Below, in pieces: positions 6,701 to 42,922 of a DNA stretch of 64,000 nucleotides. The stretch is taken from contig CAWHUF010000014.1 in NCBI GenBank assembly GCA_963832495.1, forward strand, positions 279,308 through 343,307, in the 5' to 3' direction. Position 1 is the stretch's first letter; the number at the start of each line of letters is the position of its first letter. The position numbers and the translations under genes were made by a program. The notes beneath the pieces are model-generated. The model made no database searches. It was not told the DNA's origin and was given only the letters and a program-made list of their open reading frames with translations. This stretch comes from an uncultured Acidobacteriota bacterium (lineage in GTDB: Bacteria > Acidobacteriota > Thermoanaerobaculia > Multivoradales > UBA5704).

Positions 6701-8232
6701 ACGCCCAGATCGCGGTGAGCGCGGCGGACGACAAGAAGCACGTGGCGGACGATCCGAAGTGGAATGACCCCACCCGCTTCGGCAACGAGAGCCGGCTTTC
6801 CCCATCCGCGACGATCTTCCGTGTCCTCCAGACGCCGCCACAGGCGCCCGACCTGCCGAACTTAGGCGAGCGGCTTGTCGCCACGCCAGCCGACTATAAG
6901 GACAACTCCTACTCAACCTTCCGCTTCAACGACCTCGGACAGCCCTTGAGGGTCCACATCCTGCGCGCCGTGGACGACAGTCTCTTCAAGCGGGATTGGC
7001 TGATCCGGGAGACGCGGAAGGGGCTCGATCCGGCGAACGCGAAGCATGGGGATTTCTTCCCGGACGACCTAGATCTCAGCAAGTGGCCGGCCGGCGCTGC
7101 CGACCTGAACGCCATCACGGCAGACACTGCGTACGTCGGCCTCTCCGACGATGCGTGGTCGGTGCTGGCGCTGCTGCCGGGCAACGAGGGGCAGCCGGAC
7201 CAGCCGAGCCTTGCCGAGCGCGACTGGGCCGTCCGCCACACGCGCGCGAGCCTCTCCGCGGCTGACGCCGATCTCTTCCCCAAGAGTTGGAACCCGACCC
7301 AGATCGCGGACGCGGCCAATGCTCTGAACAATCTTGCTGGTCCTACCGGCTATGCCACGCTGCCTGACAACGCCCTGCGCATCCTCGCCGGCCTCCCCGG
7401 CAACGAGGCCGCCTTCACCCAGGTCACCCTGGCTCCCCTGGAGATGGCGGATCCCAAGATCAAAGACGAGCGTCGGCCGGACGACGATGCGGCGTACGTG
7501 TCCCAATCGATCAACATCCGCGCCTACACCGACACCCTCCCGGGTCGCGCCACCAACCGCTACTTCTATCGCGCGCGTTTCGTGGATGGGGCGCAGAACC
7601 AGAGCTCGCTGAGCCTTGCCGGACCGCCGGTTTATCTCAGGAAGGTGGAGCCGCCGCGGGCACCGGTGATTACGAAGGTGGTTGGTGGGGATCGGCAGAT
7701 TACGATTAGATGGGCTGCGAATCGTGAGCTGGACTTCGCGGAGTACCGCGTGTACCGGACCAGCACCAGAGAGAATGCCGTTGACCCGCGGCTGATGACG
7801 TTGGCCGCGACACGCAGTTCGACAGAACAGGCTTGGGTTGATACAGATTCGCCGCCGGCAGTCACAATGTACTACCGGCTGGCCGCCATAGATGCAACTG
7901 GCAACGTGTCTGCGCCGTCGAGGCCCGCATCAGGGCGTGCTTTCGATGATTCTCACCCTCCTATCCCAGTATGGAAAGCACCGGTCGTCGATGTTGACAG
8001 TAATACAGTTGTCCTGTCCTGGGTGTTCGAATCCTCCAACCTCCAAGCTCTTGTGTCGCGGCGATCATCATCTGAAACCACTTGGGAGAACCTGACGGGA
8101 TGGCTTCCAGCCGGAACAGACACGTTCATGGACCGTGGAGTCGGTATCGGTCTATGGATGTATCGGCTAGTGGTCATGGATCCTAACGGCCGCATCTCGA
8201 AGGCAGAGCAAGACTTGACGGTTGACCTATGA
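3715..8232 (+). CDS. large hypothetical protein (1505 aa) with C-terminal fibronectin type III-like domains; no signal peptide
   Basis: A single long ORF. The C-terminal ~220 aa show two FN3-like modules (PPRAPVITKVVGGDRQITIRWAANRELDFAEYRVYRT ... YYRLAAIDATGNVS ; VVLSWVFES ... YRLVVMDPNGRIS). The rest has no recognisable motifs. It is first in a co-directional, tightly spaced gene set. Confidence 0.65.
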   Translation: MSFQTDDLALLALGILGDKPPDPDQPPLPDGVHCRWTFAEERGFPWHGFYLFRRESRPRRPKCLSQETGSLRPGLSRGSSLNTRLGRLTGTQPLRFTDDFPATGAVEIDLGAGLRFDLYSGIQAGRVDVRIGFRDAGPAVQRKCVDFRRFPLGPGPNPRTEQDVDFETESPQVSPPLSITLIESWNGSAPGLNTSRRLQATLPREASRVDLLLTNRHGMVIEALTRGGGRVAVRELRPGELQAGVVTLTGTGIAQVILLGSSVDAALLHEFCFESSGEVPRESAVEVRALAGKEVAAQTVIRGTAGQVVSATLEHEGITAVEINPGPAVLVDLCYWPSEQGVTFGWSEVPGFTYPLCLPVADPDYPCPGKPVDFKAAKDLALSRVTYPGPEGWEDGFADLHGQLEILVKGGPGGGPMAGRVNPELPGVPISPATQPELPKMPGLRPLDLILLASLHPTVAQMLGLYFVDRSVDTGVGYDYLLLADPTGVLGGTAASALDWLAFSADASQVDAYLVLDRKAEPRPPIAPPGEGRAYALPGPAARAIDGSLPEAAGHVGLWWPLPPDSVQEQPDRIVFYYPKRASLGPAEPKDPPADSAYQPLPDPSPVLVSEPDPQDPPVPPNPRSSDWPPPSIPLHKVDSNLAEGWYSYRFVGQDLFGRRSALGPPSRWFEWDPLPEHQRHAFAVALHDNTSPSIPLGVQAWALDPLDRWLLADKPYEDWRATVSKDLVGLRVRWLWTYLQQLQAPDTHEFRMYYQPGRWNALLGKIEKVAAVSVSAVQSDVDLDFANFHPADAFVGTRLRVGNDDFAVLGSQPGTNLRLRVKNIGVHDEIPPTEGKPCTVAIPENHPLWIDTSLASSWAQRLAVVPYDPPVGTVFDPSKDPNGQALTSHNDAFKTVQVMVTGQDVLFGAGPDLSGLQPWIDHLWLRAGTAEEAHRIVRYDATAHTVTLEAAPALTGPPDAWVLGRPTREYEVFLPALDVGAGHPFEPSLAEPAVYAQIAVSAADDKKHVADDPKWNDPTRFGNESRLSPSATIFRVLQTPPQAPDLPNLGERLVATPADYKDNSYSTFRFNDLGQPLRVHILRAVDDSLFKRDWLIRETRKGLDPANAKHGDFFPDDLDLSKWPAGAADLNAITADTAYVGLSDDAWSVLALLPGNEGQPDQPSLAERDWAVRHTRASLSAADADLFPKSWNPTQIADAANALNNLAGPTGYATLPDNALRILAGLPGNEAAFTQVTLAPLEMADPKIKDERRPDDDAAYVSQSINIRAYTDTLPGRATNRYFYRARFVDGAQNQSSLSLAGPPVYLRKVEPPRAPVITKVVGGDRQITIRWAANRELDFAEYRVYRTSTRENAVDPRLMTLAATRSSTEQAWVDTDSPPAVTMYYRLAAIDATGNVSAPSRPASGRAFDDSHPPIPVWKAPVVDVDSNTVVLSWVFESSNLQALVSRRSSSETTWENLTGWLPAGTDTFMDRGVGIGLWMYRLVVMDPNGRISKAEQDLTVDL

Positions 8233-17943: not shown

Positions 17944-18273
17944 TCAAGGAATCGGCGGGCCGCAGTCAACTCGGCAGCCGTAGGTGGCCGAGCCGTCCAC
18001 CACCCACATGCTGCCCGACGCGTAGCAGGGGGGGAGGGTGAAGGCGCAGACCAGCGTAGCGCCGCCACAGTCAGCCTGAGCTTCGGGCAGTCTGGCCGCC
18101 CGGAACTGTGCCTGGGCGTCCGCGCACGTGGCCGCCATCTTCCAGTCAGGCGAGGTGCTGTAGCCACCGTCGTCGCAGCACAGGATGGCGTGGGCCGGTT
18201 CCGGCGTCGAGAACGCCGCGGTACAGGCGAGCACGGCGACCAACAGCACTCCCAACAGAGTCAACCTCTTCAT
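17944..18273 (-). CDS. small secreted cysteine-rich protein, paralogue 1 of 6 (Sec signal peptide + 8-Cys mature domain)
   Basis: It encodes MKRLTLLGVLLVAVLACTAAFSTPEPAHA|ILCCDDGGY ... C ... C ... C ... C ... C ... C. AAAGGAG lies 9 nt upstream. It shares a conserved 5' leader with the other paralogues. Confidence 0.8.
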   Translation of the reverse strand: MKRLTLLGVLLVAVLACTAAFSTPEPAHAILCCDDGGYSTSPDWKMAATCADAQAQFRAARLPEAQADCGGATLVCAFTLPPCYASGSMWVVDGSATYGCRVDCGPPIP

Positions 18274-41004: not shown

Positions 41005-41265
41005 ATGACCCTTACGCTGGATCTCCCGCCGAAGCTCGTCGATGAGCTTGCCGCTGAGGCCGCCCGGCTGGGCCTGTCCGTCTCTGAATATGCCGCGCGT
41101 GTCCTCTCCCAGGACAGGAGCTTGAGGGCGGCGCCCAGGACCGGTGCGGACCTGGTCGCCTACTGGCAGGAGGAAGGTCTGGTAGGAACCCGGCCCGAGA
41201 TCACGGACAGTACGTCCTACGCGCGTGATCTGCGGCGCGAGGCCGAACGGCGGAAGCTCTCGTAG
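41005..41265 (+). CDS. vapB: type II antitoxin (VapB-like)
   Basis: An 86-aa protein sits immediately upstream of a PIN toxin and overlaps it by a few nucleotides. It has an N-terminal DNA-binding-like segment and a C-terminus rich in charged residues. Confidence 0.65.
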   Translation: MTLTLDLPPKLVDELAAEAARLGLSVSEYAARVLSQDRSLRAAPRTGADLVAYWQEEGLVGTRPEITDSTSYARDLRREAERRKLS

Positions 41266-41268
41266 AGG

Positions 41269-41652
41269 ATGCTCCTCCTCGATACAGACGTTCTCATCGA
41301 CATTCAGAAGGGACGCCCTCAGGCTCTTGCCTGGTTCGGTAGCCTGACGGAGTTGCCATCCGTTCCGGGCGTGGTCGTCATGGAGTTGATCCAGGGCGCA
41401 CAGAACACGCAGCAAGTCCGCCAAGCTCTGAAGCTGGTAGCTCCCATGCCCGTCGTCTGGCCGACAGAGAACGACTGCGCCCGCGCTCTCTCCGATTTTT
41501 CCATCCTCCATCTGACCCACGGTCTGGGGCTTCTGGACTCGCTGATCGCCGCTTGCGCTCTGGGGTGCTCGGCGACTCTGTGCACTTTCAACTCCAAGCA
41601 CTACAGAGCTGTTCCCGGTCTGTCGATCCTGGAGCCTTACGTTAAATCGTAG
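41269..41652 (+). CDS. vapC: PIN-domain ribonuclease toxin VapC
   Basis: It begins MLLLDTDVLIDIQKG, the canonical PIN N-terminus with acidic residues. It has ~127 aa with conserved D/E positions. Confidence 0.85.
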   Translation: MLLLDTDVLIDIQKGRPQALAWFGSLTELPSVPGVVVMELIQGAQNTQQVRQALKLVAPMPVVWPTENDCARALSDFSILHLTHGLGLLDSLIAACALGCSATLCTFNSKHYRAVPGLSILEPYVKS

Positions 41653-41959
41653 CCGGCTCAGATCAGACCGCACCCTCTCCTCTGAACAAACCTCCACCCA
41701 TCACCCGCTCTTGGGGAGTTTTAAAGGAGGGCCGGCGGGCCGGGCCGGCACTCCGTCCCGCCGGTACATCAAATGTCAAAGAGCTGCGTTTCTCTCAATC
41801 CGCAAATGCTTTTTCGTAGATGTCGGAGAAACTCCTCCTCTATTCCAATAGGGAGGATTTACTGCTAGGGTGACGGCATTCTCGGGACAGATCTACCGCT
41901 TGTCAATAGGGGCTCGCCATTTTGCGAGCGAAACGCGCAATTTGGCTCCTGCGGCTCTT

Positions 41960-42245
41960 GTTGCGAGCTTGGAATCCACTGGATTCTGGTTTGGAGGAAG
42001 TCTCTTCAAGGTCAGAATCCAGTGAATTCGGAAGTGAAATCCAGTGGATTCTGGCCAGAAGCATTCATTTCGAGATCGGAATCCAGTGGATTCGAGTCTC
42101 GAAGCATTCATCTTGGTCGTAGAATCCAGTGGATTTCGTTCTGGAATCCAGTGGATTCTGGTCTCGATCTCAATGCTTCTGCCGCTGAACGAGTGGATCT
42201 GAATCTTGAAATGAATGCTTCTGCGATGGAATCCAGTGGATTCGA
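41960..42245. repeat. cluster of about 7 copies of a 15-bp perfect palindrome GAATCCA(G/C)TGGATTC interleaved with GAAGCATTCA/TGAATGCTTC motifs, in a ~0.7-kb AT-shifted non-coding region
   Basis: Copies are read directly at about 41967 (GAATCCACTGGATTC), 42086, 42144 and 42228 (GAATCCAGTGGATTC). One-mismatch copies lie at about 42010, 42038 and 42122. Spacing is irregular, so this is not CRISPR-like. Confidence 0.75.
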
Positions 42246-42922
42246 GAATGGAATCTCGTGTCCCGGGAATGGTGGTGACGGTTTTGAGAACGGAATCGCT
42301 GGGTTATGGCTCTAGACAGAAACGCTGGAGGTCCGTTACTCTGGATTCGCCAGGTCCGATGAATTCTCCGAGTAAAACTGAGGGGACCTGCCATCCCGGT
42401 GAAGGTTGGCCAGGGTGGGCTCATTGACAAACGATGTGAGTTTTACCCGGGAGGTGGCTTGGGGCGGCCACCTTCCGGTCCCTCCTGTTTGAAGGGATCA
42501 GCAGGCGTGAAGTCGAGGTGGGCAGGCTCGAAGTCGTTGACGCCTCCACCGTATCGTTGCTTCAAGGCCTCAACTCTTTGCAGGAACTCTGCACCACCGG
42601 TCTTCTGGGTTCTCTTCTTCATGGCCATCGAGTCTACTGGATGGTCCTTCCCAGCCGAAACGACCGGTTTCTGTAGGGGCGGTCCGCAGGATGCCGTAGG
42701 CACCCTGCGTGGCCGCCCTGGGCTGCGCCAGACCTATCCCCGTTGTCCGTCCGTGCTCGTCCGTGTTTGTCCGTGCTGATGGCGGTCCGCCCGGGTTTCT
42801 CGCGGCCCTTCAGGCCGCAGGACTGTCGGGACCTGTTGACCCAGGGCATCGGCCTACCGGCCGAAGCCCTGGGCTGGAGTCTCGCGATCCTTCGGGCCGC
42901 AAAAACGAAGCTTACGCTGCCC

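Follow-up and report, generated by a model that had tools for sequence, protein, structure and literature searches.

The closest described counterparts of the array discussed here are operator clusters such as the tandem ARG boxes of ArgR, which lie about 21 bp apart centre to centre, the OR and OL operators of phages, and the 7-1-7 boxes of the Fur family, which support polymerisation. Modular intergenic repeats form a second group, which includes the pneumococcal BOX element, organized as boxA-boxB(n)-boxC, the mycobacterial MIRU and the enterobacterial BIME/REP. Plasmid iterons and the sopC/parC centromeres provide a third comparison. The DNA analysed (the window, 64,000 nucleotides) comes from the Thermoanaerobaculia, abundant Acidobacteriota of soil and sediment with almost no cultured members or genetics. 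The array that it contains is one copy of a multi-copy, lineage-specific chromosomal cassette of these uncultured bacteria.

Like the multi-operator arrays of ArgR, OR/OL and Fur, this one has sites of some 15 bp that are two-fold symmetric in a 7-1-7 layout, an integral-turn spacing that would put bound dimers on one face of the DNA, adjoining promoters, and sites that are more conserved than their spacers. Unlike these arrays, which have 2-4 sites, the cassette carries 5-10 sites over 200-400 bp, and these lie upstream, at least 65 bp from the -35 hexamer, rather than over the promoter. It also differs in having a second motif, an 11-mer, at alternate lattice points and with mirror polarity, and in that the whole unit is a multi-copy cassette. 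To our knowledge, the motif fits no regulator consensus, and a full-text literature search with its 13-mer core returned only one unrelated tomato paper.

With BOX, MIRU and BIME the cassette shares its lineage-specific, multi-copy and intergenic occurrence and end modules that are conserved around internal units of about 43 bp, whose number varies in whole units. The differences are that the palindromes behave like double-stranded DNA sites without compensatory changes, not like RNA or DNA hairpins, that they keep a strict helical lattice, and that the unit brings one or more consensus promoters of its own, ends that are terminator-like and sometimes a protein gene; furthermore, no RAYT association was seen, unlike in BIME/REP. 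The periodicity of about 22 and 43 bp, the clustering and the AT shift are also found in plasmid iterons and sopC/parC centromeres. Unlike these, the array has no rep or par gene, its sites are palindromic and orientation-free, and it occupies many chromosomal loci per genome with chromosomal synteny kept; the plasmid and viral collections that were searched do not contain it.

Palindromes on a two-turn lattice

The palindrome GAATCCA-S-TGGATTC is present in seven copies at 41972-42243, starting at 41972, 42015, 42037, 42079, 42122, 42144 and 42229, and there are no others with up to two mismatches in the 64-kb window. By chance 0.10 copies would be expected in the window, and the count of seven was reached in none of 100 shuffles. 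The arms are perfect in four copies and have one mismatch in the other three, in agreement with the initial annotation, which had reported a cluster of at least seven exact or one-mismatch copies. The same annotation had called the unit a perfect 15-bp palindrome; the palindrome stands, but strict perfection does not, the site being a 7-1-7 structure with a central G or C.

The spacing, which had been described as irregular (25-80 bp), turned out to be regular. The start-to-start distances in the window are 43, 22, 42, 43, 22 and 85 bp, all multiples of a lattice of about 21.3 bp, equal to two helical turns. The same rule applies to all 105 neighbour distances in 20 loci, which are 21/22, 41-43, 64 or 85 bp, with a best period of 21.30 bp and an rms residual of 0.56 bp. 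With a lattice of this period, all palindromes face one side of the helix.

Over 112 sites, the central base is G in 54 and C in 53, so the sites are without orientation, and 84 of the 85 arm changes recorded in them are uncompensated. Together, the uncompensated changes and the equal frequency of the two central bases point to a two-fold-symmetric site in double-stranded DNA. The symmetry extends to the flanks of the sites, which have Y at -2 and R at +16.

The shorter motif that had been seen interleaved with the palindromes is indeed present: the 11-mer GAAGCATTCAT, hereafter the A motif, occurs at three places, 42058 (+), 42101 (+) and 42211 (-), with a variant at 42169 (-), and within the 64-kb window it is confined to the array. 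It occupies alternate lattice points and its polarity flips at the array centre. Taken as a whole, the array forms an imperfect inverted repeat. In all 10 arrays that have the A motif in both orientations, its copies converge.

Numbered by lattice position, the window array opens with palindromes at position 0 (41972..41986, GAATCCACTGGATTC), position 2 (42015..42029, GAATCCAGTGAATTC, one mismatch) and position 3 (42037..42051, AAATCCAGTGGATTC, one mismatch). The 22-bp unit that includes position 2 is missing in the orthologous locus L044, and a 43-bp block with this unit in it is missing in L020. The A motif follows on the plus strand at positions 4 (42058..42068) and 6 (42101..42111), with an exact palindrome at position 5 (42079..42093), and then come palindromes at position 7 (42122..42136, one mismatch) and position 8 (42144..42158, exact). 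The dyad centre, where the polarity of the A motif flips, is located at about 42140. The right half consists of the motif variant B (CTCAATGCTTC) at position 9 (42169..42179), on the minus strand and with inverted polarity, a degenerate palindrome with the half-site AGTGGATC at position 10 (42186..42200), which is kept in L007, L020 and L044, the A motif on the minus strand at position 11 (42211..42221, ATGAATGCTTC on the plus strand), and an exact palindrome at position 12 (42229..42243). The lattice then continues in a decayed form over 42251..42348, with half-sites at 42251 (GAATC...), 42292 (GGAATCGCTGG) and 42334 (...CTGGATTC).

The region is AT-shifted and non-coding, as had been claimed from the sequence. 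Its GC content is 0.46 at 41972-42243 and 0.52 at 41653-42442, versus 0.66 for the whole window; the longest ORF inside it has flat GC1/2/3 values (0.51/0.49/0.44), and its orthologues differ by 22- and 43-bp indels. The adjacency to a toxin-antitoxin pair is also correct, with vapB (RHH, 41005-41265) and vapC (PIN, 41269-41652) directly to the left.

Some other identities were considered for the palindromes. The earlier view that they are not a CRISPR was sustained: neighbouring palindromes are separated by 7 or 27-28 bp, and these gaps hold the recurrent 11-mer, not unique spacers, and no cas genes were seen. A cluster of DnaA boxes was rejected, as the palindrome on direct reading fits 6 of the 9 positions of TTATCCACA, has no orientation and occurs at many loci. 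A cluster of GANTC sites for methylation (CcrM/HinfI-type) was rejected as well, since the rest of the window shows no avoidance of GANTC and the variant found on Treponema contigs is without GANTC.

Promoters, ends and putative transcripts of the cassette

The array is the core of a cassette of about 0.78 kb, which extends from about 41715 to 42491 in the window. On its left, P1 is a strong sigma70-type promoter (TTGACA-17-GAGAAT, 41878..41906, minus strand) directed away from the array, with a match to the consensus of 10/12, where 0.4 such matches are expected by chance. Both hexamers are kept in L044, with only about 6 of the 17 spacer bases identical, and promoters of the P1 type (10-11/12) flank the arrays in 11 loci. 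The linker between P1 and the first palindrome (41907..41971) is 89% identical to L007 and 84% to L044.

Downstream of P1, the segment 41783..41871 (minus strand, 85% identical to L044) would be the body of a short non-coding transcript of about 160 nt. It sits where full-length copies have the orf132 5'UTR and gene; its first 30 nt or so at the 5' side are common to paralogous copies, and its RNA fold has a z-score of -2.15. The terminator-like end of the P1 transcript, the type II end (41715..41782, minus strand), is 87% identical to L044. Read on the minus strand, it is composed of the T motif TCTTTGACAT (41782-41773), a GC hairpin with arms at 41764-41753 and 41743-41732, and the tail CCCTCCTTTAAAACTCC. 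In the locus L018, the type II module, here with a TTTTT tail, comes after the orf132 stop codon and received a terminator call.

The right side has a similar organization. A weak P2-like promoter (TAGACA-17-TTACTC, 42313..42341, plus strand) may be directed away from the array; in the window its score does not reach the threshold of the scan, and it is proposed from its orthologues, the equivalents in L007 (CAGACA-16-CATAAT) and L014 reaching 9/12. The P2 side is 89% identical to L044, and the conserved non-coding segment from P2 to the type I end (42342..42420, plus strand) is a putative short transcript, for which RNA covariation gave no clear signal either way. This segment contains a 1-nt indel near 42372, which rules out a conserved ORF. 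The type I end (42421..42491, plus strand) is 85-90% identical in L007, L020 and L044 and consists of the T motif TCATTGACAA (42421-42430), a GC hairpin (42447-42458 / 42467-42478) and the tail TCCCTCCTGTTTG; in L006 and L014 it received terminator-like calls on the outward strand.

Both ends are terminator-like modules of the same make, TCTTTGACAA plus a GC hairpin. The comparison of the MFE of the two strands and the counts of G-U versus A-C do not discriminate the strand of the end hairpins, and for this reason the short transcripts are not claimed as functional sRNAs. Across the loci, the promoter-like matches within 330 bp of the arrays are outward in 19 cases and inward in one, and 7 of the 20 arrays have no detectable promoter nearby.

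In the full-length copies, orf132 lies downstream of P1 and encodes a lineage-specific helical protein of 132 aa. Its AlphaFold model (pLDDT 82) consists of a 60-residue helix followed by a basic, Pro-rich tail. Orf132, which is kept as a candidate for the protein that binds the array, belongs to no Pfam or PADLOC family, its fold has no PDB match with E below 3, and no DNA-binding fold is recognisable in it; the 64-kb window has no homologue of the gene. More distant orf132 loci retain a diverged array and a consensus promoter upstream, as would be expected of a cis-element in co-evolution with the protein that binds it.

Dispersion, synteny and constraint

Three Thermoanaerobaculia MAGs were found to have arrays of this kind, with at least 10, 5 and 2 contigs carrying them, respectively. 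The initial annotation had considered that the palindrome could be a genome-wide REP-like element with hundreds of copies. Dispersion was in fact observed, but it is the whole array cassette that is dispersed, at tens of loci, and not hundreds of isolated palindromes: throughout the window and some 150 kb of retrieved loci, the palindromes occur solely inside arrays. Paralogous copies are 80-94% identical over 0.5-0.9 kb, and up to 93-94% over 500-700 bp, a similarity that could be due to recent spread or gene conversion and would then inflate the apparent conservation.

The cassette occupies the same syntenic position in four species (the window, L044, L007 and L020), and a second syntenic pair across species is formed by L014 and L021. 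At the first position, palindromes are more conserved than spacers in each comparison with the window, namely 91% versus 80% identity in L007, 94% versus 71% in L044, and 93% versus 60% in L020 (Fisher p = 3e-7). Identity in the syntenic orthologues is about 0.8 at codon position 3 and 0.91-0.95 at positions 1+2. The indels that distinguish the orthologous arrays are exactly 22 or 43 bp long, so the phase of the lattice is kept.

P1 and the type II end are decayed in L007 and L020, where the array persists; it may therefore have a role independent of P1. In the same two loci, the vapBC/HD-CE island is replaced by a PDC-S01 gene. Among six TonB-receptor homologues that were fetched, the one in L044 is accompanied by the cassette and the other five have a different synteny, so that none of them offers a comparable empty site.

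Several matches from the searches proved to be unrelated. The metagenome matches L028, L030 and L031 belong to a 44-bp satellite that has GGAATCCAGTGGAT in common with the array, and L012, L024, L025, L027, L033 and L034 are other repeats or hairpins.

A probable regulatory array and competing explanations

The best reading of the array, to which we give a little more than an even chance, is that it serves as an operator or upstream array for the cooperative binding of a dimeric protein to the DNA. A dimeric regulator was among the options raised at the outset, and it is the one that survived, strengthened by the site symmetry, the helical phasing, the purifying selection and the outward flanking promoters. 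The array would then be an untranscribed control region between two outward-facing transcription units. P1 would drive orf132 in the full-length paralogues and the non-coding remnant in the window, the weak P2 would serve the second unit, and each unit would close with its terminator-like module. Dimers of the putative protein would occupy the palindromes, contact each other along one face of the DNA and assemble a two-fold-symmetric higher-order complex, which may control the flanking promoters, either repressing or activating them.

Some observations count against an operator, namely the position of the sites, upstream of the P1 -35 hexamer and not over the promoter, the arrays that are promoterless, and the decay of P1 in two loci that kept the array. 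Furthermore, no regulator gene is consistently adjacent to the arrays among the neighbours of the loci. The cassette represents a compact, sequence-defined handle on gene regulation in the Thermoanaerobaculia, as it combines a promoter, a motif on a two-turn lattice and a small conserved protein. If the cognate protein is found, it would provide a natural long cooperative array with two-fold symmetry and possibly parts of genetic tools for the phylum.

Less probably, the cassette belongs to the selfish or neutral repeats of which MITE, BOX and BIME are examples, and either spreads or is made uniform through recombination; its palindromes would then be transposase or recombinase sites, or products of slippage, with no regulatory role for the host. 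Its multi-copy nature, with at least 10 contigs in one MAG, the similarity of the paralogues and the change of unit number by whole units are in keeping with this idea. Moreover, the ends are inverted copies of one design (TCTTTGACAA, hairpin, CCCTCCT), the short copies resemble internal-deletion derivatives of those bearing orf132, and the orf132 homologues are mostly on very short contigs, like repeats. However, no copy encodes a transposase or recombinase in or beside it, and the ends do not appear to be true terminal inverted repeats, as the type I and type II hairpin sequences differ. Stable inheritance at two syntenic loci and the slower evolution of the palindromes than of the spacers also speak against such a repeat, and slippage alone would not predict the strict helical phasing. 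A REP/BIME identity does not agree with the arm changes, which lack the compensation that maintains hairpins. No Y1 transposase was found beside the arrays; the Y1_Tnp (RAYT-like) gene in the locus L042 of a relative has another REP-like sequence on its flanks.

Another tentative view, also rather unlikely in our judgement, is that the cassette represents an undescribed class of cis-element, in which a phased array with a built-in dyad would nucleate a symmetric nucleoprotein complex, possibly with Orf132, and the promoter-array-terminator unit would spread without an encoded transposase. Similar arrays phased at 21-22 bp, AATCC-N(3-5)-GGATT, are present on Anaerolineaceae and Treponema contigs. 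If such a class exists, these arrays would suggest a broadly distributed, unrecognised DNA-binding system.

It is improbable that the arrays serve to organise the chromosome, as places where a nucleoid-associated, ParB-like or SMC-related protein loads or nucleates, with incidental promoters. Dispersed arrays of AT-shifted composition, with palindromes phased on one DNA face, would suit such a function, as would their persistence at loci with decayed promoters (L007, L020) or with none (L001, L010, L013, L019, L021). On the other hand, the sequence is unrelated to the canonical parS, par and smc genes are not adjacent, and the association with outward promoters, 19 to 1, is strong and specific. 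In addition, the known sites of this type (parS, matS, NBS and SBS) are single palindromes, not arrays of 5-10.

Even less credible is a structured nucleic acid, either a long hairpin RNA, a cruciform or an array of single-stranded DNA hairpins. The inverted-repeat character of the whole array and its RNA fold (-145.5 kcal/mol, z = -10) would agree with it, but repeated palindromes give a strongly negative z-score trivially. The flanking promoters point outward, terminator-like modules bound the array, and the arm substitutions and the strand-symmetric central base point to a DNA site. Rfam, searched with the window and three loci at gathering and E-value thresholds, gave only sub-threshold miRNA and PtaRNA1 noise.

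The initial annotation had proposed an iteron-type origin or a partition centromere at the GAATCCASTGGATTC sites, within a remnant of about 5 kb of an integrated plasmid or ICE (37.3-42.4 kb), which is extremely unlikely in spite of the spacing that recalls iterons and sopC-type repeats, the AT shift, and the adjoining low-GC island, which carries a defence-like gene besides vapBC. Genes for Rep, ParA or ParB are lacking near the window array, and the examined flanks of the other loci are without ParA and ParB; blastn of the array against 72,556 plasmids and a pattern scan of viral contigs both gave 0 matches; and at least 10 arrays per genome lie on large chromosomal contigs. An origin would call for directional iterons, an adjacent rep gene and one origin per replicon, none of which agrees with the dispersed symmetric palindromes, and for a centromere the sequence also differs, on direct reading, from the canonical parS TGTTNCACGTGAAACA. 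For annotation, arrays like this one are not to be taken for plasmid origins. With the array syntenic across four species and the neighbouring island variable, it is the adjacent vapBC/HD-CE island, and not the array, that is the mobile part of the locus.

The palindrome array and its phasing

The array contains seven copies of the 15-bp palindrome GAATCCA[G/C]TGGATTC, which start at 41972, 42015, 42037, 42079, 42122, 42144 and 42229 and whose arms are perfect in four copies and carry one mismatch in three. Chance predicts 0.10 copies, none of 100 shuffles reached the observed count, and no further match with up to two mismatches occurs in the 64-kb window. The cluster seen in the initial annotation is therefore genuine, as are the shorter motifs interleaved with it: GAAGCATTCAT occurs twice on the plus strand (42058 and 42101) and once on the minus strand (42211), a variant of it sits at 42169 (−), and within the 64-kb window the motif is restricted to the array region. 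The reported AT shift is also present (GC of 0.46 in the array versus 0.66 in the window).

The spacing, on the other hand, is not irregular, as had been thought. Start-to-start distances of 43, 22, 42, 43, 22 and 85 bp fit a 21.3-bp lattice, whose positions 0−12 read P, x, P, P, A>, P, A>, P, P, <B, p, <A, P (P, palindrome; p, degenerate palindrome; A and B, the 11-mer secondary motif and its variant, with arrows for polarity), and decayed half-sites extend beyond position 12 as far as ~42348. Across 20 loci, all 105 neighbor distances are 21/22, 41−43, 64 or 85 bp, with a best period of 21.30 bp and an rms residual of 0.56 bp. This period equals two helical turns, and thus all sites lie on one face of the DNA. 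Indels among orthologous arrays amount to exactly one or two lattice units (22 and 43 bp), which, together with flat GC1/2/3 in the largest internal ORF, indicates that the array is non-coding, in agreement with the first reading.

Site statistics were compiled from 112 palindromes (the window plus 17 loci). The central base is strand-symmetric (G 54, C 53, A/T 5), the flanks are symmetric as well (Y at −2, R at +16), and 84 of the 85 substitutions in the arms lack a compensating change. A hairpin maintained by base pairing would not show this pattern; the palindrome bears the marks of a double-stranded DNA site with two-fold symmetry, of the kind that a dimer would read.

Architecture and dispersal of the cassette

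When each GTDB species, represented by one genome, was searched for palindrome pairs 8−31 nt apart, 21 loci were returned, 17 of them from three Thermoanaerobaculia MAGs, namely, SMAG_U6494 (DASZEM, 10 array-bearing contigs), CAXTNS (5) and SMAG_U3379 (DASWME, 2). Scanning metagenomes yielded two more contigs of this family, both from soil, a pattern scan of viral contigs found no palindrome arrays, and no similarity to the array was detected among 72,556 plasmids. Whatever its array may bind, there is no doubt that the cassette acts as a family of dispersed repeats; the dispersed generic repeat that had been named as a possible refutation applies to the cassette family, with its 17 loci in three MAGs, and not to the palindrome itself within the 64 kb, where it is confined to the array.

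Paralogous loci are alike far past the palindromes (80−94% over 0.5−0.9 kb), and their motif maps yield a common architecture. A type I end facing the array (from AGGAGGG through a GC hairpin and 8−16 nt to TTGTCAAAGA) is followed by ~170 bp with a weak outward promoter-like site (TAGACA/TGGACA, N16−18, TAATCT-like), the array in its canonical form P A> P B> P <A P <A P, a linker of ~65 bp, a strong outward promoter (TTGACA-17-GAnAAT), a predicted transcript body, and a type II end (TCTTTGACAA, N7−8, the hairpin CCGGCAGGGAC... and CCCTCCT). The window carries the type II end at 41715−41782 (−), a predicted short transcript at 41783−41871 (−), its strong promoter P1 at 41878−41906 (−), the array with its decayed part at 41972−42348, the weaker P2-like site at 42313−42341 (+) and the type I end at 42421−42491 (+). 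Promoter-like matches within 330 bp of the arrays point outward in 19 cases and inward in one, and P1 scores 10−11/12 in 11 loci. The A motifs converge (A> ... <A) in all 10 arrays having both orientations, so that each array is itself a large imperfect dyad. Both predicted transcription units meet convergent neighbors, vapC on the left and an 86-aa ORF on the right, and the cassette is thus self-contained.

In the full-length copies (L018, L004, L006 and L009), the predicted P1 unit consists of a leader of ~190 nt and orf132, an ORF of 132 aa; the type II module of L018 lies 3′ of the orf132 stop codon and is called an intrinsic terminator because of its TTTTT tail. orf132 is missing from the window, L003, L014, L015 and L044, in which P1 is followed by a predicted transcript body of 75−125 nt and the terminator module, while L002 has a tRNA-Pro gene downstream of P1. 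The 97 homologues of Orf132, most of them on very short contigs, all come from Thermoanaerobaculia or Acidobacteria MAGs/metagenomes, with at least four paralogues in SMAG_U6494. The protein matches no family in Pfam or PADLOC, and its AlphaFold model (pLDDT 82), with a helix at 8−24, a 60-residue helix at 30−89 and a basic Pro-rich tail, matches no PDB fold. Three more distant orf132 loci (L022, L035 and L037) are preceded by a consensus promoter and by an array that has diverged and decayed and still retains the core CASTG; L038 has none. The leader from P1 to the start codon (~180−190 nt; L018 1849−2026, L022 4810−5000, L035 2845−3000) is conserved among distant homologues, including ...GCCGCTTCTGGATAAACGCTGCT... 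directly 5′ of AAAGGAGAAAGAC, a strong ribosome-binding site. No Rfam family matches this stretch, which is a possible cis-regulatory leader.

Synteny, constraint and the neighboring island

The window cassette occupies a syntenic position in four species (the window, L007, L020 and L044). In the first three, a GH5-like and a DDAH-like gene come first and a variable segment next, after which follow the cassette, the 86-aa ORF (uncalled in L007) and the gene of a TonB-dependent receptor; in L044, the cassette immediately follows the receptor gene. Identity to the window for palindromes, A motifs and spacers is 91, 89 and 80% in L007, 93, 84 and 60% in L020 (palindromes vs spacers, Fisher p = 2.8e-7), and 94, 80 and 71% in L044. 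Because flanking genes show identities of 0.91−0.95 at codon positions 1+2 and 0.78−0.86 at position 3, the palindromes are constrained like non-synonymous positions. Between the window and L044, both hexamers of the predicted P1 are identical and only ~6/17 spacer bases match, which is a classic promoter signature. Against this, L007 and L020 retain the array after the decay of both P1 and the type II end.

The toxin−antitoxin pair described beside the array, vapB (RHH) and vapC (PIN), lies directly to its left. It belongs to a low-GC island (37346−41652, GC 0.50−0.60) that also holds a 972-aa HD-CE + HATPase_c_3 protein and an AsnA C-terminal remnant (40289−40840). In L007 and L020, the variable segment instead carries an AAA_14/DUF4143 gene matching the PADLOC candidate defense family PDC-S01 (E = 1.5e-107), and similarity between the window and L044 stops at ~41655, exactly at the vapC stop, which sets the right boundary of the island. 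The segment thus differs by species, indicating that the island is mobile and the array, syntenic in four species, resident; a plasmid-like remnant covering the whole span is not supported. The island looks like a variable defense/TA hotspot beside a resident cassette.

The 86-aa ORF (42443−42703, −) has no Pfam family, and its 3′ end passes through the type I hairpin; L020 has a 61-aa homologue at the same position (53% identity), and L044 has none. At 42912−46952, the receptor is spread over at least three frames (42923−43381, 43405−44904 and 44069−45403) and a HemN-like gene is split (46952−~46200 and 46204−45509). The L020 receptor is one 842-aa ORF, and the split genes are either adjacent pseudogenes or assembly indel errors. 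Further low-GC stretches (0.52−0.61 vs ~0.68) occur at 8000−11000, overlapping the start of a 2456-aa ORF (9185−16555), and at 18000−21000.

Readings of the array and comparable repeats

Given that the observed sites are repeated, phased, symmetric and constrained, and given the geometry of the promoters, we lean toward a cooperative protein-binding array, that is, an operator or upstream array within a divergent promoter region. The protein binding, cooperativity and regulatory output that we infer would arise from dimers that occupy the palindromes at two-turn intervals and touch along one DNA face, with the mirror-polar A motifs adding a second class of contact, so as to form a two-fold-symmetric higher-order complex controlling P1 and P2. 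Phased multi-operator arrays include ArgR boxes at ~21 bp, 7-1-7 Fur-family boxes and phage operators. The array resembles these in its apparent way of working and the modular dispersed repeats BOX and MIRU in its distribution. A modular repeat like MITE or BOX elements, whether selfish or neutral, is an unlikely competitor, and sites for chromosome organization are less probable still; not all of these readings are mutually exclusive. A structured RNA or cruciform is very improbable, as the folding score of the array (z = −10) is trivially expected from palindromes, the flanking promoters are directed away from it, and arm changes are uncompensated. Least credible is the oriV/parS remnant of the initial annotation; the array for a dimeric regulator that the annotation also listed agrees with symmetric, phased sites. 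The defining tests for an iteron origin and a par centromere came out negative. So did the test for REP/BIME hairpins maintained by compensatory change (84/85 arm changes uncompensated) and those for CRISPR, which had already been discounted. Neither array nor cassette has a match in Rfam, Pfam, PADLOC, the plasmid and viral collections or the searchable literature. The array is unusual for its strict lattice and built-in dyad, and in a phylum that has hardly been studied it is of genuine interest.

The same arms, again phased at ~22 bp, recur in arrays from other phyla (L005 5924−6046, with L023 identical; L011 3627−3707; L029 2799−2857). An Anaerolineaceae MAG (L005/L023) has six GAATCC-N3−4-GGATTC sites 21−22 bp apart, and AAATCCASTGGATTT is found in a Treponema MAG (L011), where it alternates with AAATCAAGTTGATTT at 22 bp, and in the metagenome contig L029. 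They lie among housekeeping genes (glgA/ftsH, GNAT, methyltransferase), none of which encodes Rep or Par, and could have arisen by convergence, by chance given the great size of the databases, or as part of a DNA-binding system of wider distribution. The contigs L028, L030 and L031 carry long arrays, of 21−53 units, of a 44-bp satellite, GATGCAGTGGATCCCGATGGAATCCAGTGGATNCCCTCGTGTGT (GC 0.53), which has the string GGAATCCAGTGGAT in common with the array but is a direct repeat of a different family. In another Thermoanaerobaculia MAG (L042 6480−8010), a 309-aa Y1_Tnp (IS200/RAYT-like) gene has a different REP-like repeat, GGTGCCAGSCAYYTCGG, on both sides, and the lineage thus appears to own a REP/RAYT system of the conventional type, to which the palindrome is unrelated.
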